Source of the DNA: a virus
IMG/VR virus record: IMGVR_UViG_3300045988_153046
Reading direction: 5' to 3' (one strand)
DNA length: 58,315 nucleotides
This document shows positions 1 through 58,315 of this stretch, one piece after another (positions within the stretch are counted from its first letter, which is position 1; each line of letters opens with the position of its first letter). The notes beneath the pieces were generated by a model. The model had not been told where the DNA came from. It searched no databases and saw nothing but the letters and a program-made list of their open reading frames with translations. The translations under genes were made by a program, and so were the position numbers.

Positions 1-119
1 GTTTTTTTTTTTTTTGCGCTCTAAAGATACCCCTCAAAAGTGATTAGGTTAAAGCATGAATACAAAGGCAAGGAGGGTTATTTGATGGGCGTTGCTGAGG
101 ATGTATTAGAGTATCTGAA
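1..119. repeat. Terminal redundancy (identical to 58197..58315); unit genome about 58196 bp
   Basis: Base-by-base identity of G+T14+GCGCTCTAAAG...GTATCTGAA at both window ends. Confidence 0.95.
20..50 (+). promoter_or_regulatory. Bipartite motif copy 1 (putative phage-specific promoter or leader element)
   Basis: TCTAAAGA-N12-GTGATTAGGTT directly after the T14 terminator tail; upstream of 85..381. Confidence 0.6.
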
Positions 120-3994: not shown

Positions 3995-4025
3995 TCAAAA
4001 TATAACGCCTGAGAGTGATTAGGTT
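3995..4025 (+). promoter_or_regulatory. Bipartite motif copy 2
   Basis: TCAAAATA-N12-GTGATTAGGTT; followed by TGTTATCAGAA, as in copy 10. Confidence 0.55.
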
Positions 4026-10592: not shown

Positions 10593-10598
10593 AAAGGG

Positions 10599-10636
10599 CG
10601 GCTACTGGCTTAATTGCTGGTAGCCGTTTTTCTTTT
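10599..10636 (+). terminator. Rho-independent terminator
   Basis: 10-bp stem CGGCTACTGG / CTGGTAGCCG (2 G-U pairs) followed by TTTTTCTTTTT. Confidence 0.7.
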
Positions 10637-10667
10637 TCTAAAAATCTACCTCTCATGTGCTTATGAT
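10637..10667 (+). promoter_or_regulatory. Bipartite motif copy 3
   Basis: TCTAAAAA-N12-GTGCTTATGAT; spacer TACCTC is complementary to the RBS GAGGTA (10677-10682). Confidence 0.55.
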
Positions 10668-28677: not shown

Positions 28678-28809
28678 ATGGCTGTAATCTATGCTACTCT
28701 TATTGTTAAGGGTAAAAAGGCAATCACTGATGTACCAGCGGTGATTAAGGCTCAGGTTAAGCAGATTTTGATTGATCTGGAAGTGCCTGAGTTGGCAAAC
28801 GAGGAGTAA
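28678..28809 (+). CDS. Small conserved phage protein (43 aa), paralogue of 28514..28621
   Basis: ATG 28678 after AGGAG; the track's longer start is unlikely. Confidence 0.55.
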   Translation: MAVIYATLIVKGKKAITDVPAVIKAQVKQILIDLEVPELANEE

Positions 28810-28864
28810 AAGGGGGCTAAAAGCCCTCTTTTACTAATTTCTGAGAAAGGAGGATAGCCAGTGT

Positions 28865-31436: not shown

Positions 31437-31579
31437 AGATACAAACGGCTAGAAAGCCCTTAGAGAGCTTTTAAGGGTTGAGGGTAGAGAGTTATACCCC
31501 TGAGCGATTAAAGCGGCTCAGAGGGGCAAGAGCGGGGCTCAGGCGGGGCAAAAAAAAATAAACTAAAGGAGTGTATAGG

Positions 31580-33291
31580 ATGGCTTACAGGAAAGAGCAG
31601 GATACCATAGGATTAAGAGCGGCGTTTTATGCCAGAGTATCTACAGCGGAGGAGGAACAGCTTAACGCTATAGAGCTCCAGATTGAGGAGAACAGAAACG
31701 CTATAGAGCGGCATAAGTGGAAAAAGGTAGATGAGTATATTGATCGGAGCAAGTCTGGTACTATGGTAAAGGGCAGAGATGAGTACCAAAGGCTTTTTGA
31801 TGATCTTTACTCTGATAAGTTTGATGTGGTGGTAATCAAAGATCAGGAGCGGCTCATGAGAAATACTCTTGATTGGTATTTATTCATAAATCGCTTAGTA
31901 TCTACAGGTAAGATCCTTTATATGTACATGGAGGATAGGTTTTACTCTCCTGATGATGCCTTAATTACAGGAATAAAGGCGATTATAGCAGAGGAGTTTA
32001 GTAGAAATCTCTCTAAAAAGCTCCGCAATTATCACGCTGGGAGAGTGGCTAAGGCAAGAGAGGGAAAAGAGATAGATTTACAGGGTAGCGGTAATGTTTT
32101 TGGCTGGGATAAAAAGAGGGTAGGTATATTCTTAATCCAGAGCAAGCAAAAATAAGGCGGCTCATGTGTGAAGGGATCATGGCTAGAAAAGGCTCTACTC
32201 AGATTGCTAAGGAGCTAAATGATGCGGGATACAGAAACACAGTAGGTAAGAAGTGGAAACCTATGGATATTCCTAAGTTTGTGTATGACTGCAAAAATGT
32301 TGGCACTATGATAATCAACAAAGAGAGGCATGATTTTGAGAGCAAGAAAACTATCAAGCTCCCTGAGAGTGAGTGGGTGTATGTTAAAAATGCCTTGCCG
32401 CCTATAGTCACTGAGGAGGAGTGGGCTTTAATTTGTAAAATCCGTGAGGAGAGAGTGATAGCTACAGGCTGTAACAAGCGGGGTAAGAAAACTACAGGAT
32501 TTTCTTTCAGTGGTAAGATCTATTGTGGACTGTGTGATGCGCCATACTGGAGAAAACAGGGAGTATCTAAAGAGGAATACTGGGTATGCAGTACTAAGCA
32601 AACTAAAGGCAGAAAAACAAGGGCTAGAGATGCTGTAGGCGGGAAAGCTGGGGAGTTTAATGCTGAGGGCTGTGATAATGAAAATATCTCTTATGGTGCG
32701 CTCATGGCTATTATGGAGCTTGTTTCAGAGCGGCTAAAGGCAGATACAGGGGTTATTAAAGAATTTATGATAGAAAGGCTTAACGGCTACAAAAAACGCA
32801 TTACAGAGGCTAACAGAGGGGCTACAGAGGCAGATTTACAAAGAGAGCTTGATAGAAAAGATAGGCTCTTAGATGCTTACCTAGATCATATCCTCACAAA
32901 AGAGGAGTATCAAAGAAAAGCCCTAGCTTTAGATGAGAAAATCATGGAGCTCAAAAGAGAAGTAACTGCTAATAGGGGTAATCTGGAGGATTTGAATGAG
33001 ATAGATAGGGTACTGGCAAATATTGATGCAGAGGTAGCAAAATACTTAGATGATAATAGCCAGCTCAAAGTAGAGTACCTTTTAGAGCATTTGGAGAAAG
33101 TGGTTATCTATCCTGATAAGGCGGTTGTTATAATACCGATATTGTGTGAGGGGTTTGTGGTAGATAAAGCTCAGTATGTATCTAGGGAGAAATCTACTGA
33201 GATACAAACTGAAAGCAATGTAATTTATCTGGCAGATGTGAGGTACTGGAACAGAGATATAGAGCTGTATGTACAGTTTGTAGCGGCATAA
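31580..33291 (+). pseudogene. Large serine recombinase (integrase) interrupted by a 1-nt frameshift in an A5 run
   Basis: Resolvase domain (FYARVSTAEEEQ) ends at TAA 32153-55. The +2 frame, open from 32113, continues KEGRYILNPEQAKIRRL... A6 instead of A5 at 32111-15 would fuse them. Confidence 0.85.
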
Positions 33292-33304
33292 TATATAGGG
33301 GTTA

Positions 33305-33335
33305 TCTAAAATAATAAGCCTCCTGTGATTAGATT
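33305..33335 (+). promoter_or_regulatory. Bipartite motif copy 4
   Basis: TCTAAAAT-N12-GTGATTAGATT; spacer CCTCCTG is complementary to the RBS CAGGAGG. Confidence 0.6.
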
Positions 33336-33364: not shown

Positions 33365-35038
33365 ATGATTAGAGTAGAGAAACTAGAGAAAGGGCTGTAT
33401 TTTGATGATGCCTACAAACTCTCTTTTAGGTACGATCCTATTACTGTAAGCAAGGTAAAAGAGCTTGCTCAGAGAAGATACTTACCAGAGGATAGGGCTT
33501 GGGAGATCCCTAGCTATGAGTTACCTAACTTGATTGATAAGGTGGGGTTGAATAATATTGATGCTGAGGATGCTCTTGTAGGGGCTTTGAAATCAAAAGA
33601 GATAGAGGATAGGAGAGCGGCTACAGAGGAAAGGCTTAGAGGGATAAAGCCTCTGATAGATTTTGATTTTACTACAGAGCCTCTCCCTCATCAGATAGAG
33701 GCTTTTAATTTTGGGCTACAAAAGGATAAAATGCTTATAGGAGATGAGCAAGGCTTAGGAAAAACAAAAGAGAGCATTGATATTACAGTAGCTAGAAAGC
33801 ATGAGTTAGTAAAAACCTTGATTGTATGCGGGGTAAACTCAGTTAAGTATAACTGGGAGCGTGAGATTAAGCTACACTCCAGAGAAAGCTCTGTAATGAT
33901 TGATGGTAAAACAATGGATCTCAGGGTAAAGCAGATTTATGAGTGGTATAAGAGCTCTAGCTATTTTGGGATTATCAATATTGAGAGCCTGAGGAAAGAG
34001 CAGATACAGGATGCTCTTTTTGATGGTATCAGAGATGGCTATATTGGGGCTGTAATTGTGGATGAGATCCATAAGGCTAAAAATGGCAGTAGCCAGCAAG
34101 GGAAAGCTCTTAGAACACTAAAAACGCCTATAAGATTGGGGCTCTCAGGTACTCCCATGAATAAGGCGGAGGATCTCTGGAATATTCTCACATGGCTAGG
34201 GGTTGAAAATCGTCCTTTTTACAGGTTTAGATCTACTTACTGTGTTATGGGTGGATATGGCGGGTATAAGGTGGTAGGGCATAAAAATCTTGAAAGCCTT
34301 AATGCAGAGCTTAATACTGTGATGCTGAGGCGTAAAAAGGGTGAGGTGCTGGATTTGCCGCCTAAGATCCATAGTACAGAATATGTAGAGCTCACTAAGA
34401 AACAGCAAATTATGTACAGGGATATTAAGAATGGGATCATAGCAGATCTTGAGAATATTCTTACCAGCGTAAATCCGCTTAGCTGTACTTTGAGGCTCAG
34501 ACAGCTTACAGGAGGGTTATTTACTGAGGAAAATCCTAAGCTGGAGAGGCTTATGGATATGTTATCTGAGGAAATTATCCCTAATGGTTATAAGGCTCTT
34601 ATATTTTCTCAGTGGGAGAAAATCACTGAGGTATATTATGAGGCGTTGAAAGAGTATAATCCCGCCTATATTGTAGGCAAGGTATCCCCTGAGGATAGAG
34701 AGGCTGAAAAAGAGCATTTTCAGAATGATCCAGAGTGTAAGCTAGCTATTGGTACTATCGGTGCTATGGGTACTGGATTTACTCTCACTAAGGCTAGTTA
34801 TGTTTTCTTTATAGATAAGGCATGGGTTAGCGGAGATAATGCTCAGGCTGAGGATAGAGCACACAGAATAGGTACAGAGGATACAGTAAATGTTATCTCT
34901 TTGGTGGCTAAAGGTACTATAGATGAGGGAATTGAGGAGTATCTGATTGAAAATCAAGATCTCTTTGATCGCGTAGTAGATGGTAAAGGCTCTAAGCACG
35001 ATATTAGGCAAGTGCTTAATAATCTCTTGAAAATATAG
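33365..35038 (+). CDS. SNF2-family helicase
   Basis: DEQGLGKT, DEIHKAKN, SGTPM, QAEDRAHRIG motifs. Confidence 0.9.
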   Translation: MIRVEKLEKGLYFDDAYKLSFRYDPITVSKVKELAQRRYLPEDRAWEIPSYELPNLIDKVGLNNIDAEDALVGALKSKEIEDRRAATEERLRGIKPLIDFDFTTEPLPHQIEAFNFGLQKDKMLIGDEQGLGKTKESIDITVARKHELVKTLIVCGVNSVKYNWEREIKLHSRESSVMIDGKTMDLRVKQIYEWYKSSSYFGIINIESLRKEQIQDALFDGIRDGYIGAVIVDEIHKAKNGSSQQGKALRTLKTPIRLGLSGTPMNKAEDLWNILTWLGVENRPFYRFRSTYCVMGGYGGYKVVGHKNLESLNAELNTVMLRRKKGEVLDLPPKIHSTEYVELTKKQQIMYRDIKNGIIADLENILTSVNPLSCTLRLRQLTGGLFTEENPKLERLMDMLSEEIIPNGYKALIFSQWEKITEVYYEALKEYNPAYIVGKVSPEDREAEKEHFQNDPECKLAIGTIGAMGTGFTLTKASYVFFIDKAWVSGDNAQAEDRAHRIGTEDTVNVISLVAKGTIDEGIEEYLIENQDLFDRVVDGKGSKHDIRQVLNNLLKI

Positions 35039-35375: not shown

Positions 35376-35406
35376 TCTAAAAAATCCTCCCCTTAGTGAT
35401 TATGAT
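35376..35406 (+). promoter_or_regulatory. Bipartite motif copy 5
   Basis: TCTAAAAA-N12-GTGATTATGAT. Confidence 0.55.
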
Positions 35407-36166: not shown

Positions 36167-36913
36167 GTGGGAAAAATACAGATTAACAGGCGCAATAACT
36201 TCACTATGGTATCTAATCATGTGCTCAGAAATGAAAACCTCTCTCTTAAAGCTAAGGGGTTGTATGCTTATATGTGGAGTTTGCCTGATAGCTGGGATTA
36301 TTCTGTAGCGGGGCTCACTAAAGTACTCAAAGAGGGCAAAAGTGCTATAAATGAGGCTCTTAAGGAGCTGGAGCATGAGGGCTATTTAGTGCGTACTATT
36401 CTTAGAAAAGGGGGTAAGTTTAGTGATATGGATTACATACTGAATGAAACTCCCTCACCGTTTACCGATTTTCCGTCAGCGGAAAAACCGCAAGCGGAAA
36501 ATCAGCAACAAAGTAATACTATACAAACTAAAGAAGAAAAAACAAAAGATCCTTTTCTTTCAGAAAAGGGCAGAGCCTCAAAAAAGAGCTCTAGTTATGA
36601 TACTATCTTTAATGCTCCAGAGAATGAGTTTATCAGAGAGGCTTTAGTAAAGTGGGTGAAAGCTTGTAAAGGCAGAGGGGTAGGTTTTCAGTATAAAACG
36701 CTTGAGAGATGGGCTGGTATCCTTAGAGATAATACAGGAGAGAGCCCTGAGGTAGCTTTAGCTATTGTGGATCAGAGTATAGAGGCTGGGTGGAAAGATC
36801 TTTATCCACTCAAAAAGAAACAGGCTACTAAGCCTAGAGCGGTATATGAGCCCTTTGATCCAGAGAAAGATAAGCTTGTTACTGATGAGGAGGGCAAGCC
36901 TAAAGTATATTGA
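36167..36913 (+). CDS. Replication initiator/organiser (winged-helix N-domain, DnaD-like C-region)
   Basis: FTMVSNHVLRNENLSLKAKGLYAYMWSLPDSWDYS...LKELEHEGYLVR; GTG after GAGGAGG; upstream of the loader and helicase. Confidence 0.6.
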   Translation: MGKIQINRRNNFTMVSNHVLRNENLSLKAKGLYAYMWSLPDSWDYSVAGLTKVLKEGKSAINEALKELEHEGYLVRTILRKGGKFSDMDYILNETPSPFTDFPSAEKPQAENQQQSNTIQTKEEKTKDPFLSEKGRASKKSSSYDTIFNAPENEFIREALVKWVKACKGRGVGFQYKTLERWAGILRDNTGESPEVALAIVDQSIEAGWKDLYPLKKKQATKPRAVYEPFDPEKDKLVTDEEGKPKVY

Positions 36914-36917
36914 GTTG

Positions 36918-36949
36918 GAGGGGAGTTTTCTCTCCCCTCTAATTTTTTG
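36918..36949 (+). terminator. Rho-independent terminator
   Basis: GAGGGGAG / CTCCCCTC stem, then TAATTTTTT. Confidence 0.7.
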
Positions 36950-36968
36950 TTTGTAGCGTGATTAGGTT
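36938..36968 (+). promoter_or_regulatory. Bipartite motif copy 6
   Basis: TCTAATTT-N12-GTGATTAGGTT. Confidence 0.55.
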
Positions 36969-38984: not shown

Positions 38985-39174
38985 GCGTGATGAGAAAGTG
39001 CCTAAAGGTAGGTTAATACCTATGTATTTATCAGATGATGGGGATTTGTATAGCCTGAGATTTAAGGATCAGGATCAGCTTGAGGAGATAAGTACTATGA
39101 TGGGCATATTTCTGAGTGGGGTAATCGGTAGCCCTTTAGTACTGGATGGAGAGCCTCTGAATGAGGATTTTTAG
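38974..39174 (+). CDS. Hypothetical protein
   Basis: ATG after AAGGAG. Confidence 0.4.
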   Translation: MDFKRDEKVPKGRLIPMYLSDDGDLYSLRFKDQDQLEEISTMMGIFLSGVIGSPLVLDGEPLNEDF

Positions 39175-39235
39175 AGAGAAATACAAGGTAGTAGATAAGA
39201 CAGAGAAAGAAAAACTAAAAAAGTTTGAGCGGGTA

Positions 39236-39266
39236 TCTAAAAGTAGCCTCTTTTCCTGATTAGATT
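39236..39266 (+). promoter_or_regulatory. Bipartite motif copy 7
   Basis: TCTAAAAG-N12-CTGATTAGATT; the spacer forms a 13-bp stem with the RBS region. Confidence 0.6.
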
Positions 39267-39294
39267 TGAGTATCACAGGAAAGGAGGCTTTTTA

Positions 39295-39783
39295 ATGAGC
39301 ACATTGAGTAGTAAAGCGGTAGCTGAAATGTTAGGTAAGCGGCATGATAACTTTATGAGAAATCTGAGGAGTTATGCGGCTACGCTTGGAGAGAGTGCGT
39401 CTGAGTATCTTATTGAGAGTACCTACAAAGACGGAAAAGGAAAGGTAAGAGCTGGGTATGAGATTACCCTTAAAGGCTGTGATTTGATTGCTGGTAGGAT
39501 TATTGGGGCTAAGAGTGATGAATTTAGAGAAAAGTATAAGCCCTTATTTTCTGAGGGTGAGGGCTCTGAGCCTGTAAAAGAGCGTTGTACCCCTCAGGAG
39601 GTGCATGGTTATACTACTGAGGAGGCGGCTAAGGTATTGGGCTGTAGCCGCCGTACTGTACAGAGAATGATCCAGCGGGGGGAGTTGGCTACTCAAGAGG
39701 TTACTGTGTTAGTGCCTACGGTTAAAACTCTTATAATCCCTGAGGAGTTGGATAGATACCAGAAAGAGAGGGCGGCTGTATGA
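39295..39783 (+). CDS. Rha-like regulatory protein with a C-terminal excisionase-type HTH
   Basis: N-terminus SSKAVAEMLGKRHDNFMRNL; C-terminus YTTEEAAKVLGCSRRTVQRMIQRGEL. Confidence 0.6.
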   Translation: MSTLSSKAVAEMLGKRHDNFMRNLRSYAATLGESASEYLIESTYKDGKGKVRAGYEITLKGCDLIAGRIIGAKSDEFREKYKPLFSEGEGSEPVKERCTPQEVHGYTTEEAAKVLGCSRRTVQRMIQRGELATQEVTVLVPTVKTLIIPEELDRYQKERAAV

Positions 39784-40430: not shown

Positions 40431-40829
40431 TTACTTAGCGATCTTGATAGCTATGGTTGCTAACAGGTGCTTGTCCTCCTCTGAAAGCTTGAGATAAAGC
40501 CTAAGGAATTGCACTAGCTCACTATCTGTACCTAACCTCTGCTGTAGCTCTGAGAGCTCTTTGTTGGGGAGGCTCTCAGGAGAGAAGTTAAAGAAGTGTT
40601 CTATGGGAGCATTAAGGTAAGTAGCTAGCCGCTGTAATCGCTCCATATCAGGGAGATGCCTACCAGTATTCCATGCTGAGATGGTAGTAGGTGGTATCTC
40701 AAGAGCATCAGCAATATCTTTATTGCTTTTTTTCCTTAGGGCTTTGTAGTAAGCCATTGCCCTAGAAAAGCTCTCATTGAGGGGGGATTTGTTAGACACG
40801 TTTTCACCTCCTCTCTTTGAGGCATACAA
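40431..40829 (-). CDS. XRE/CI-like repressor (only credible minus-strand gene)
   Basis: KKSNKDIADALEIPPTTISAWNTGRHLPDMERLQRLATYL; GGAGG RBS on the minus strand; divergent from a consensus promoter. Confidence 0.8.
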   Translation of the reverse strand: MYASKRGGENVSNKSPLNESFSRAMAYYKALRKKSNKDIADALEIPPTTISAWNTGRHLPDMERLQRLATYLNAPIEHFFNFSPESLPNKELSELQQRLGTDSELVQFLRLYLKLSEEDKHLLATIAIKIAK

Positions 40830-40901
40830 GTATTATACAGTTAAACAAGCGTTTTGTAAAGTCCGAACATCAAAAAAGTTAGTTAAACTGTATTTATGCT
40901 A

Positions 40902-40930
40902 TTGACAGGCGGTTAAGCGAGTGATATAAT
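40902..40930 (+). promoter_or_regulatory. Consensus sigma-A promoter (early rightward)
   Basis: TTGACA-N17-TATAAT with a TG extended -10. Confidence 0.8.
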
Positions 40931-42463: not shown

Positions 42464-43060
42464 ATGAACACAGGAAAAAGGACAAATGAGGAATTGGTAA
42501 TAGTTTATAGGATTACCAGAGATGAGAGTTATTTAGCAGAGCTCATAAAGCAGAACAGGGGGCTCTTGTATATGATTGTTGAGCCGTTTGTACATAGTAT
42601 CCCTAATGCAGAGCTTGAGGATCTTACCAGTGAGGCTTATATCCCCATGCTGAGGGCTATTGAGGATTTTGATGAGGCTAGGGGGCTTACCTTTGCTAAT
42701 CTGCTTAAGGTGTATGTGCGCCAGCATTTGAGCCGCCTTTACAATGAGGCTACACGCCAGAAACGCTATAACGGATCTACCAGTGTTGGCTATGAAAGCC
42801 TTACAGAGATCAATAGAGAGGGTGGATCTGAGGGAGACAGCTATTTTACTGTAGATTGTGAGGATTTTAACTCTGTAGAGTTTATGCAGTTTATCAATTC
42901 CTTAGAGCTGAATGAGAAAGAGACGGTAGCTGTAAATGTACTCATGGCTGGAGGTACTAAGGGTGAGGTGGCAAAAGCTCTTAAGTGTACTCCAGCTACG
43001 GCAAATTATTATTTCAAACAGATTAGGAGAAAGTTTGTTTTGGCGGGTTATGCGCTCTAA
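42464..43060 (+). CDS. Phage-encoded sigma-70-family factor (regions 2 and 4)
   Basis: Region-2-like DLTSEAYIPMLRAIEDFDEARGLTFANLLKVYVRQHL; region-4 HTH GTKGEVAKALKCTPATANYYFKQIRRKF. Confidence 0.75.
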   Translation: MNTGKRTNEELVIVYRITRDESYLAELIKQNRGLLYMIVEPFVHSIPNAELEDLTSEAYIPMLRAIEDFDEARGLTFANLLKVYVRQHLSRLYNEATRQKRYNGSTSVGYESLTEINREGGSEGDSYFTVDCEDFNSVEFMQFINSLELNEKETVAVNVLMAGGTKGEVAKALKCTPATANYYFKQIRRKFVLAGYAL

Positions 43061-43086
43061 AAAATGCCCTACTTTCTGATTAAGTT
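43056..43086 (+). promoter_or_regulatory. Bipartite motif copy 8 (overlaps the sigma gene stop codon)
   Basis: TCTAAAAA-N12-CTGATTAAGTT. Confidence 0.55.
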
Positions 43087-46221: not shown

Positions 46222-46253
46222 AGATGAGTATGTTGGAATGAGCTAAAAAAGAA

Positions 46254-46880
46254 GTGGAAATAGCCAGCAAGAGGGAAAGAGGAGATAAGCCTGATGGTGA
46301 GTTTGATTATGGCTGTGCTTGCTATAGTGGGGCTTTGGAGGCGTTTGAGGTGCTCTGTAATCAGGGGCATAGTGGTATGAGTATTGGCTTTACAAAACAG
46401 ATCCTTAACAGGTTGATAGATGGAAAACCTCTTACTCCCATTGAAGATACTGAGGATGTATGGAATTTAACACATAGAGAGGGAAAGATTAAACATTATC
46501 AGTGTAGCCGCATGAGTAGCTTGTTTAAGGATGTATCAGAGGATGGCAAGATTACTTATTCAGATGTTAATAGAGTATGCGGGGTTGATTGTAATTCTGG
46601 GGCTACATATCACTCAGGGTTAGTAAGTAGGGTGGTTAATGAAATGTACCCTATCCAGATGCCCTATATTCCAAAATCTCCTTATAGAGTGTTTTGTGAG
46701 GATTTTCTAACTGATAAGAAAAATGGAGATTTTGATACGGTTGGTATTTTTTATTTAATTGATCCTGATGGGGAGAGAGTGGAAATAAACCGATTTTTTA
46801 AGGAGAGTAGCTTAGGGTTTTCGGAGATCTCTAAAGATGAGTATATGGAAAGAAAGAGTAATAGAATAGCGTTAAAGTAG
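46254..46880 (+). CDS. Hypothetical protein
   Basis: Long ORF on the coding strand; GTG start uncertain. Confidence 0.5.
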   Translation: MEIASKRERGDKPDGEFDYGCACYSGALEAFEVLCNQGHSGMSIGFTKQILNRLIDGKPLTPIEDTEDVWNLTHREGKIKHYQCSRMSSLFKDVSEDGKITYSDVNRVCGVDCNSGATYHSGLVSRVVNEMYPIQMPYIPKSPYRVFCEDFLTDKKNGDFDTVGIFYLIDPDGERVEINRFFKESSLGFSEISKDEYMERKSNRIALK

Positions 46881-46911
46881 TCTAAAATGAGCCTCCCTTT
46901 GTGATTAAGAT
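46881..46911 (+). promoter_or_regulatory. Bipartite motif copy 9
   Basis: TCTAAAAT-N12-GTGATTAAGAT; the spacer forms a perfect 12-bp stem with the methylase RBS. Confidence 0.6.
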
Positions 46912-46937
46912 CGGTAAACACAAAGGGAGGTATAGTT

Positions 46938-47777: not shown

Positions 47778-47810
47778 TAGAGGAGGGGCTGTAGAGGCTC
47801 CTCTTTCTTT

Positions 47811-47841
47811 TCTAAAAATCTGGGCGGTATCTGATTAGGTT
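47811..47841 (+). promoter_or_regulatory. Bipartite motif copy 10
   Basis: TCTAAAAA-N12-CTGATTAGGTT after a terminator-like hairpin. Confidence 0.6.
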
Positions 47842-52723: not shown

Positions 52724-52754
52724 TCTAAAAAAACTCTCTTTAAGTGATTAGGTT
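52724..52754 (+). promoter_or_regulatory. Bipartite motif copy 11
   Basis: TCTAAAAA-N12-GTGATTAGGTT; a 15-bp stem links it to the RBS. Confidence 0.6.
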
Positions 52755-52781
52755 GTTTATCACTTAAGGGGAGGGATATGA

Positions 52782-55377: not shown

Positions 55378-55405
55378 GTAAATCCTATTTTAGTAAAACA
55401 GGTAG

Positions 55406-55443
55406 AGAGCTGATCTAAGTAAAGGATCAGCTCTTTCTTTTTG
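55406..55443 (+). terminator. Rho-independent terminator
   Basis: AGAGCTGATC / GATCAGCTCT 10-bp stem, T-rich tail. Confidence 0.85.
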
Positions 55444-55474
55444 TCTAAAAAAGCCCTTTCAATGTGATTATATT
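55444..55474 (+). promoter_or_regulatory. Bipartite motif copy 12
   Basis: TCTAAAAA-N12-GTGATTATATT. Confidence 0.55.
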
Positions 55475-58162: not shown

Positions 58163-58175
58163 TTACTTTTTAATG

Positions 58176-58211
58176 AGAGAGGGTAACTCCTCTCTTGTTT
58201 TTTTTTTTTTT
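58176..58211 (+). terminator. Strong rho-independent terminator
   Basis: AGAGAGG / CCTCTCT stem followed by T14. Confidence 0.85.
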
Positions 58212-58315
58212 GCGCTCTAAAGATACCCCTCAAAAGTGATTAGGTTAAAGCATGAATACAAAGGCAAGGAGGGTTATTTGATGGGCGTTGCTGAGGATGT
58301 ATTAGAGTATCTGAA
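58197..58315. repeat. Terminal redundancy (copy of 1..119)
   Basis: Exact identity with the window start. Confidence 0.95.
58216..58246 (+). promoter_or_regulatory. Bipartite motif copy 1 repeated within the terminal redundancy
   Basis: Same sequence as 20..50. Confidence 0.6.

Follow-up and report, generated by a model that had tools for sequence, protein, structure and literature searches.

In the IMG/VR virus record IMGVR_UViG_3300045988_153046, a stretch of 58,315 nucleotides that we analysed in full and call the window, the ribosome-binding site (RBS) of a Rha-like regulatory gene is buried in a long hairpin at 39246-39288. The window is a temperate tailed phage of gut Oscillospiraceae, and the locus raises the question of how a gene whose Shine-Dalgarno (SD) sequence is sequestered in this way would come to be expressed. 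A first-pass annotation had taken the hairpin for an anti-RBS stem, one of 12 leaders with the same architecture, and had read the differing but still complementary arms of another copy as covariation in a real structure. We found that the structure is real, and that it is interlaced with a two-block sequence motif specific to this phage family. We consider it likely, with a probability of roughly 60%, that the element is a promoter for a phage sigma factor nested in a terminator-type, SD-occluding hairpin, such that incoming RNA is terminated, leak-through RNA is silent, and promoter-derived RNA is translated.

We began with the hairpin itself. The arms, their coordinates and their pairing were exactly reproducible: 39246-39258 pairs with 39276-39288 through 12 Watson-Crick pairs and one U.G pair (T39251:G39283), closing a loop of 17 nt. 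A 14th pair, A39245:T39289, extends the stem to 13-14 uninterrupted base pairs, seven of them G-C, and the A-run of the TCTAAAA heptamer just upstream is able to pair with the TTTTT that follows the stem. The loop shrinks to 6 nt only if a weak inner helix of 3 bp is allowed. As had been proposed, the stem covers the RBS of the gene starting at ATG 39295: the SD, AAAGGAGG, lies inside the 3' arm at 39280-39287, ends 7 nt before the start codon, and is fully paired in the predicted fold of 39230-39300. That fold, which includes the pairs between A-run and U-tract, has a minimum free energy (MFE) of -23.6 kcal/mol, as compared with -13.97 ± 2.75 kcal/mol for dinucleotide shuffles (z -3.5; 0 of 200 as stable). 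Uninterrupted helices of at least 13 bp, with at most one G.U pair and a loop of 3-30 nt, occur four times in the whole 58,196-bp genome, versus a mean of 0.15 in mononucleotide shuffles, and two of these four are the 39246-39288 stem and the stem at 46891-46931, before an MT-A70 methyltransferase gene. We conclude that the stem upstream of the Rha-like gene is real, beyond chance. The remaining two long perfect hairpins are at 28805-28835 and at 1144-1188, the latter a 17-bp stem immediately after an SLT-domain gene with arms unrelated to an SD.

The hairpin shares its position with a motif of the form TCTAAAA-N13-GTGATTAGGTT, whose two blocks we call A and B, followed 2-3 nt later by (a)GTATCA (block C, consensus aagTAtca in aligned upstream regions). 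A weight matrix trained only on other phages picked out exactly 12 sites, each of them intergenic and on the + strand of the window, with scores of 18.5-43; the next best site scored 1.5, the reverse-strand maximum was 6.5, and shuffles reached at most 9.8. The number of leaders counted in the first-pass annotation was therefore right, but the stem is strong in only about a third of them. Nor are the copies alike in structure alone, given that the rigid motif and GTATCA, which that annotation does not mention, are common to them as well. The spacing between blocks A and B was 13 in all 49 elements that had not been selected by spacing, with no other value between 8 and 19, placing the block starts 20 bp apart, whereas the distance from motif to start codon varies by about 30 nt. 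The blocks are kept in copies without any hairpin (47811, 36938, 3995 and many others). Most copies stand directly after a canonical terminator, a hairpin with a T-run, with nothing else conserved before the SD, leaving the downstream genes without another promoter.

The exact 18-base pattern was found in 96 stretches of IMG/VR viral contigs, versus nine matches in 596 Gb of bacterial genomes. Four of these nine (L099, L101, L102 and L104) have single chance-level sites or none; the other five fall in four contigs of Bacillota/Clostridia metagenome-assembled genomes, and three of those four contigs have several strong sites. Thus, the motif is specific to this phage family. A literature search with the motif string returned unrelated primers only, and the consensus is new.

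The 13-nt spacer between blocks A and B is also where the anti-SD sequence resides, and several measurements indicate that its pairing with the SD has been selected. CCTC or CTCC is present in the spacers of 57% of 67 non-redundant elements, compared with 4.9% of genome 13-mers. Duplexes of spacers with leaders other than their own averaged -9.14 kcal/mol, versus -5.67 kcal/mol for random 13-mers, and a spacer paired with its own leader reached -10.76 kcal/mol (permutation p<1e-4 for own versus other leaders). The anti-SD sits at different positions in the spacer in different gene families, which argues that it is the pairing that is selected, and not a sub-element of a promoter. In all 12 distinct orthologous Rha-like leaders (45-86% protein identity), an uninterrupted helix of 12-21 bp runs through CCTC:GAGG, with flanks that differ from one leader to another, as in GCCTC...GAGGC versus ACCTC...GAGGT or in CCATTTC/GAAATGG. 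The arms before the MT-A70 gene, GCCTCCCTTTGTG/CACAAAGGGAGGT, likewise differ from those before the Rha-like gene with pairing kept.

A full-length MAFFT alignment of leaders misaligned the 3' arms, because loop lengths and the position of the anti-SD in the spacer differ among gene families. We therefore counted covariation in pseudo-alignments anchored only on CCTC:GAGG, not in one covariance model. Among the 12 Rha-like leaders, 9 of 17 pairs had changes on both sides, giving 22 double-change cells as compared with 7.4 ± 2.5 in shuffles and at most 6 in slid controls. For 28 strong hairpins, both sides had changed in 14 of 17 pairs, with 79 double-change cells versus 29.8 ± 4 in shuffles and at most 25 in slid controls. 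The covariation is genuine and, with these double changes present in the anchored alignments, so is the structure. These data support the stem as a selected, RNA-type structure that buries the SD.

The same inverted repeat could in principle act as DNA, either as the operator of a dimeric regulator lying over a promoter or as a cruciform or N4-type hairpin promoter, a reading that we regard as highly improbable. It does bracket a promoter-like motif, the loop is flanked by conserved GTGAT...ATCAC half-sites, and the phage encodes several helix-turn-helix (HTH) proteins, the Rha-like protein included. A strand-specific test of G.U versus A.C, under symmetric selection, gave 26 versus 14, which is not significant (about 56:44 is expected from composition) and is compatible with symmetric pairing of DNA; an initial count of 27 versus 3 was set aside as biased by selection. 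However, the arms vary among elements and orthologues with pairing kept, the opposite of what a shared protein-recognition sequence would look like. Two features belong to the level of RNA, namely that the SD forms the 3' arm in every case and that the strength of the stem varies with the U-tract. A long repeat is missing from most copies of the motif, so the promoter needs none. Promoter hairpins of N4 have 5-7 bp and 3-nt loops, an anatomy that differs from the one seen here. Bacteroidota-type and N4-type promoters were both rejected because their anatomy does not fit.

A candidate reader of the motif is encoded at 42464-43060. The 198-residue protein matches Sigma70_r2 (5.5e-6) and TIGR02937 (4e-8 over residues 24-190), and the best PDB fold matches to its AlphaFold (AF2) model (predicted local distance difference test, pLDDT, 74.5) are all sigma factors. 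It is 100% identical to the NCBI protein 'sigma factor [Hominenteromicrobium sp.]' and is present on hundreds of contigs, some of them 0.5-0.7 Mb long. Homologues occur in 22 motif-bearing loci, and each of the 10 loci fetched via the sigma protein carries 1-6 co-oriented motif sites, one of them always at the sigma gene's stop codon. Promoters of the sigma-A type are found elsewhere in the window, at 35027, 40860 and 40902, making for two promoter classes; we found none upstream of the Rha-like gene in the interval between 38557 and 40832. From this co-occurrence and from the anatomy of the motif, we infer that the motif is a promoter class read by the phage sigma factor, with block A as its -35-like and block B as its -10-like part.

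Two further observations concern this presumed pair. The flagellar sigma-28/SigD consensus is TAAA-N15-GCCGATAT, and the motif loosely resembles it, with a variant CCGATTAGGTT in L089. The best fold matches of the sigma model include the models of B. subtilis SigH and SigD, together with WhiG.

The way in which promoter and hairpin are interlaced suggests how the SD could be freed. The 5' arm is essentially the promoter spacer, the -10-like block lies in the loop, and the 3' arm starts 1-4 nt past the predicted start site, which we place in GTATCA, at about 39272-39275, by extrapolation from the general -10 geometry of the sigma-70 family. If the motif is a promoter, transcription would start downstream of the 5' arm, so the mRNA of the Rha-like gene would be unable to form the stem and only RNA derived from upstream could do so. 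In folding predictions, the SD is unpaired in an RNA begun at 39270. We thus propose that the phage sigma factor reads the two blocks as a promoter and that the resulting Rha mRNA would carry a short, unstructured leader of about 20 nt with its SD free. RNA arriving from upstream (from the DnaC/DnaB operon, early, or from the host in a lysogen) would instead carry both arms, fold into the 14-bp stem followed by a U-tract, and terminate just before ATG 39295; in RNA that escaped termination, the SD would stay buried. The hairpin would insulate the Rha-like gene from outside transcription, and its expression would depend on the nested promoter. The original description of an anti-RBS stem is therefore borne out as regards the buried SD, but the stem most likely acts on read-through RNA and not on the gene's own leader.

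A different answer, which we judge quite unlikely, is that of a cis-acting anti-RBS riboregulator in the gene's own 5' untranslated region. Transcription would then start upstream of 39246, for example with TCTAAAA as a -10-like element, and translation would be off until a loop-binding phage protein, a small RNA or temperature opened the stem. The protein Com of phage Mu, for instance, activates translation of mom on that gene's own mRNA by binding next to a stem. The likeness to Com/mom lies in a phage leader hairpin that covers both the SD and the start region of a gene for which timing is important; the difference is that the gene's own mRNA would probably be without the stem here. An SD fully buried in a stable, covarying stem fits such a riboregulator, the conserved loop sequence is as it would be for a protein-binding loop, and leaders of the PAPS-reductase type have a strong SD stem without a U-tract although a terminator already stands upstream.

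Set against this, copies lacking an SD-sequestering stem have the same blocks at the same 13-nt spacing, so the function of the blocks is independent of the hairpin. In many copies, which follow immediately on the T-run of a terminator, the blocks are the only conserved sequence ahead of the SD and must themselves supply the promoter, and there is no conserved -35 candidate upstream of block A. No Rfam family matches: the whole window gave zero matches at the gathering score, and a permissive scan of 39100-39400 gave only chance matches to small nucleolar RNAs (E>1). RNA thermometers of the fourU or ROSE type rely on a weak, mismatched SD helix with a melting point near 37-42 °C. We rejected a thermometer because this stem, at -23 kcal/mol and with 13-14 uninterrupted base pairs of which seven are G-C, is much too stable. 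A riboswitch or attenuator was likewise rejected, there being no alternative fold, no aptamer and no Rfam match.

The nested-promoter mechanism would also make the hairpin a terminator, and the stem with its UUUUU is built, and distributed in the genome, as an intrinsic terminator would be; its 13-14 bp exceed the minimum of about 5-8 bp for such a stem. We analysed 63 non-redundant elements with a called start codon, measuring the tail from the end of the SD. Hairpin MFE correlated with the number of T residues in the 9 nt past the SD (Spearman -0.65, p 7e-9), strong stems being followed by U-tracts and weak stems by purine-rich spacers. A separate terminator within 60 nt upstream was found for none of the 21 elements with a strong stem and U-tract, as compared with 24 of the 42 others (p 3e-6), among which our detector overlooked several more. 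Grouped by hand into about 15 downstream-gene families, the counts were 0 of 5 versus 8 of 10 (hypergeometric p about 0.007). Each copy of the putative promoter therefore either has an ordinary terminator before it or sits within a terminator-like hairpin of its own. We place the element at 39236-39293 in the second class, together with those at 33305 (SNF2 helicase) and 46881 (MT-A70). Its U-tail score, 3.88 at 39289-39293, is close to the median of this class (4.03) and to that of the ordinary terminators of these phages (4.65), and compares with 1.05 for other leaders and 1.44 for all genes of the window. The genes upstream of the Rha-like gene are co-oriented with it, and no terminator lies between 39174 and the element.

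The hairpin might, then, be nothing but an intrinsic terminator or a 3'-end stabiliser of the DnaC/DnaB transcript, with the SD overlap a by-product of packing and no role in translation. This differs from the mechanism that we propose solely in denying the second lock, and we consider it unlikely. Stem, U-tract and A-tract do fit terminator anatomy, such hairpins and ordinary terminators exclude each other in their distribution, and intergenic space is scarce, block A at 46881 abutting the upstream stop codon. However, most spacers are anti-SD-like, even in elements that have their own upstream terminator and no U-tract. Leaders of the PAPS-reductase type (52724) and some of the DnaC type keep a strong SD-pairing stem without a U-tract, with a terminator upstream, so SD occlusion seems to have been selected for its own sake.

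Several points weigh against a promoter nested in a terminator and an SD lock. The loops are 10-17 nt long (17 nt here), larger than the 3-8 nt of a typical intrinsic terminator, and for this reason a consensus terminator scan skips the embedded hairpins. The T-rich tail can also be explained as stem-extending pairing with the A-run of block A, so U-richness alone is no proof of termination. The effective sample is smaller than 21, as the embedded elements represent only about five orthologous gene families, and the G.U versus A.C test described above was not significant. The sigma factor is linked to the motif by co-occurrence, its recognition of the blocks being presumed, and the position of the start site leans on extrapolated sigma-70-family geometry. 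Finally, the upstream operon (from 36938) appears to belong to the same promoter class, and there is no obvious temporal logic in terminating transcription and restarting it. Taken together, the structure and the motif are solid, and the proposed mechanism is well supported.

We next compared the element with known systems. A keyword search of the literature for a promoter within a terminator gave no natural precedent other than pT181 and T4. For the T4 genes e (lysozyme), soc, 49 and I-TevI, a review describes a late promoter in the DNA for the 5' strand of an RBS-sequestering helix, with only the late transcripts of such genes being translated (PMC3014915). As described there, the T4 arrangement is like the one proposed here in that the SD and AUG are buried in a helix on long, upstream-derived transcripts, and in that related phages keep it. 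It differs in that T4 uses a single TATAAATA box read by gp55, whereas the motif here has two blocks; that the phage here is temperate and its host a Gram-positive gut anaerobe; that the 5' arm here lies in the -35/-10 spacer; and that the design here is used repeatedly, before several genes of one genome and in more than one gene family. In addition, a U-tract follows the stem here and takes the place of a terminator, a feature that does not appear in the passages of that T4 review consulted here.

The repC attenuator of pT181 and its engineered 'dual control' derivatives use a terminator hairpin whose 3' half holds the RBS (PMC5435934). There, too, one hairpin followed by a U-tract ends transcription and also keeps the AGGAG RBS of read-through RNA occluded, this RBS being part of the 3' arm and only a few nucleotides upstream of the start codon. 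In pT181, however, an antisense RNA and an anti-terminator decide the outcome, whereas here no alternative fold is evident and the escape would be the nested promoter. By analogy, the element would join the principles of T4 and pT181 with no need for antisense RNA or an alternative fold. With intrinsic (Rho-independent) terminators it has in common an A-tract, a G+C-containing stem, a U-tract, a place after the last gene of a transcription unit, and a tail score similar to that of the phage family's own terminators; it differs in that the 10-17 nt loop holds a conserved promoter-like block, the next gene has its SD in the 3' arm, and the U-tract is the spacer between SD and ATG. Promoters for phage-encoded sigma factors are known from SPO1 (gp28/gp34), phiEco32 (gp36) and its relative phage 7-11 (PMC8948821). 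These resemble the present case in combining a sigma-70-family protein with a phage-specific consensus before many phage genes, and differ in that the consensus here is new, its spacing is completely rigid, and the pairing of factor and motif is presumed.

Extended to the whole genome, these results suggest, at about even odds in our estimate, that this widespread family of temperate gut phages punctuates its genome with a three-in-one promoter, terminator hairpin and RBS, so that selected genes are doubly locked and expressed only via the phage sigma factor. On such a reading, the doubly locked genes may include the Rha-like regulator, the DNA methyltransferases and the SNF2 helicase. The element at 33305 is the first phage feature past the left junction of the prophage (about 33190), and insulation makes sense there, where it would block host read-through into the replication genes at the prophage edge.

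If the mechanism holds, TCTAAAA-N13-GTGATTAGGTT would define a new sigma/promoter pair and supply both the consensus of a promoter class and a map of transcription, with 12 units and a few sigma-A-type promoters, in an uncultured prophage family that is very common in human-gut Oscillospiraceae, the sigma protein alone being found on hundreds of contigs. The element would be a natural, self-contained 'insulated expression cassette', in which one hairpin terminates incoming transcription and silences translation of leak-through RNA, and is bypassed by the promoter in its own loop; the T4 late-gene trick and the dual-control principle of pT181 would thereby be extended to a new setting. It could serve as a compact insulator in synthetic constructs for Gram-positive anaerobes. 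For the discovery of RNA motifs it offers a caution, as the covariation is real, yet the structure is probably absent from the mRNA of the downstream gene. The coordinates of the element, its sister copies and the two genes discussed are collected in the table.

Table. Features of the Rha-leader element, the 11 other motif copies, and the Rha-like and sigma genes, in window coordinates.
Feature	Position	Strand	Remarks
Block A, TCTAAAA, -35-like	39236-39242	+	weight-matrix score 23.3; A-run can also pair with the U-tract
5' arm (anti-SD), GCCTCTTTTCCTG	39246-39258	+	lies in the N13 spacer (39243-39255) and reaches 3 nt into block B
Block B, CTGATTAGATT (consensus GTGATTAGGTT), -10-like	39256-39266	+	mostly within the hairpin loop
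Block C, GTATCA	39270-39275	+	conserved; predicted transcription start region about 39272-39275
3' arm, CAGGAAAGGAGGC	39276-39288	+	contains the SD AAAGGAGG at 39280-39287
U-tract, TTTTT	39289-39293	+	directly 3' of the stem; doubles as SD-to-ATG spacer; followed by A, then ATG 39295
Rha-like regulator (Phage_pRha and C-terminal HTH)	39295-39783	+	PF09669 3e-14; HTH_17 2e-12; PHROG anti-repressor / Rha-like
Sigma-70-family factor, 198 aa	42464-43060	+	presumed reader of the motif
Sister element	20-50	+	motif only, weak pairing; precedes the first gene of the structural side
Sister element, DUF3310 gene	3995-4025	+	block A variant TCAAAAT; no strong hairpin
Sister element	10637-10667	+	block B variant GTGCTTATGAT; immediately follows a canonical terminator (about 10596-10636)
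Sister element, SNF2 helicase gene	motif 33305-33335; hairpin 33318-33332/33343-33357	+	U-rich tail; MFE -23.8, z -5.45
Sister element	35376-35406	+	moderate SD pairing; terminator about 30 nt upstream
Sister element, DnaC-like/DnaB operon	36938-36968	+	after terminator 36912-36945; no anti-SD stem
Sister element	43056-43086	+	begins at the sigma gene's stop codon; weak hairpin; same position in all sigma loci
Sister element, MT-A70 methyltransferase gene	motif 46881-46911; hairpin 46891-46903/46919-46931	+	13-bp hairpin; MFE -25.2, z -4.99
Sister element, Cas4-like exonuclease gene	47811-47841	+	after terminator 47780-47806; no anti-SD stem
Sister element, PAPS-reductase-like gene	52724-52773; hairpin 52734-52748/52759-52773	+	15-bp SD-sequestering hairpin; no U-tract; separate terminator upstream
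Sister element	55444-55474	+	after terminator 55404-55436; weak to moderate pairing

Some copies have further features nearby. The element at 20-50 follows a terminator and a T14 run (58172-58212, which leads into the start of the window) and is identical to the copy at 58216-58246. Just upstream of the motif in the Rha leader, an A-rich stretch, GAAAAACTAAAAAAGTTTGAGCGGGTA (39209-39235, + strand), is kept in the orthologous Rha-like leaders L106, L108, L109 and L061; speculatively, it is an UP-like element, an operator or a regulator site. A short palindrome, CTGTATGTACAG (within 33250-33300), precedes block A of the 33305 element by about 45 nt and is conserved in orthologous SNF2 leaders as ctgtatatacag and ttgtatgttcag; it could be an operator or an attP-related site. 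In the MT-A70 leader of L025 (minus strand), the segment comprising SD and start, aaaggaggtattttattttg, occurs twice in tandem immediately after the hairpin.

Bases 1-119 of the window are identical to 58197-58315 (119 bp), so the genome is complete, either circular or terminally redundant, with 58,196 bp. It encodes a terminase, tail genes, an amidase, a serine recombinase, a cI-like repressor, the SNF2 helicase, DnaC/DnaB, a primase, PolA, MT-A70, RecA and the Rha-like gene. The + strand carries nearly all of the genes, and C makes up only 14.7% of the coding strand; the GC skew is extreme and uniform, at +0.19 to +0.41 in every 2-kb bin. The phage lacks a close relative in GenBank: against GenBank phages, megablast of 15 kb gave no match, the terminase was at most 29.5% identical, and the sigma protein had no match.

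Integrated copies of the phage are flanked by host genes. In these copies (L122-L125, at about position 725 of each), the match to the window starts at 33190/33191, within the 3' end of the recombinase open reading frame, and the host genes on the left flank differ by contig (LPG synthase, GntR, TetR). The large serine recombinase itself is split into two frames, 31571-32155 with the resolvase domain and 32164-33291 with the recombinase domain and zinc ribbon, the break falling at an A-run near 32145-32156. The gene for the cI-like HTH repressor (40431-40930, - strand) lies between divergent, near-consensus sigma-A-type promoters, TTTACA-17-TATAAT at 40860 (-) and TTGACA-17-TATAAT with TG at 40902 (+), the latter heading an operon that ends with the primase and sigma genes; this region has the look of a lysis/lysogeny switch. 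Between PolA and MT-A70 lies a gene (L122 13761-14417, corresponding to about 46225-46880 in the window) with a Pfam Tad3 match, and its neighbours match RecU and DUF4406.

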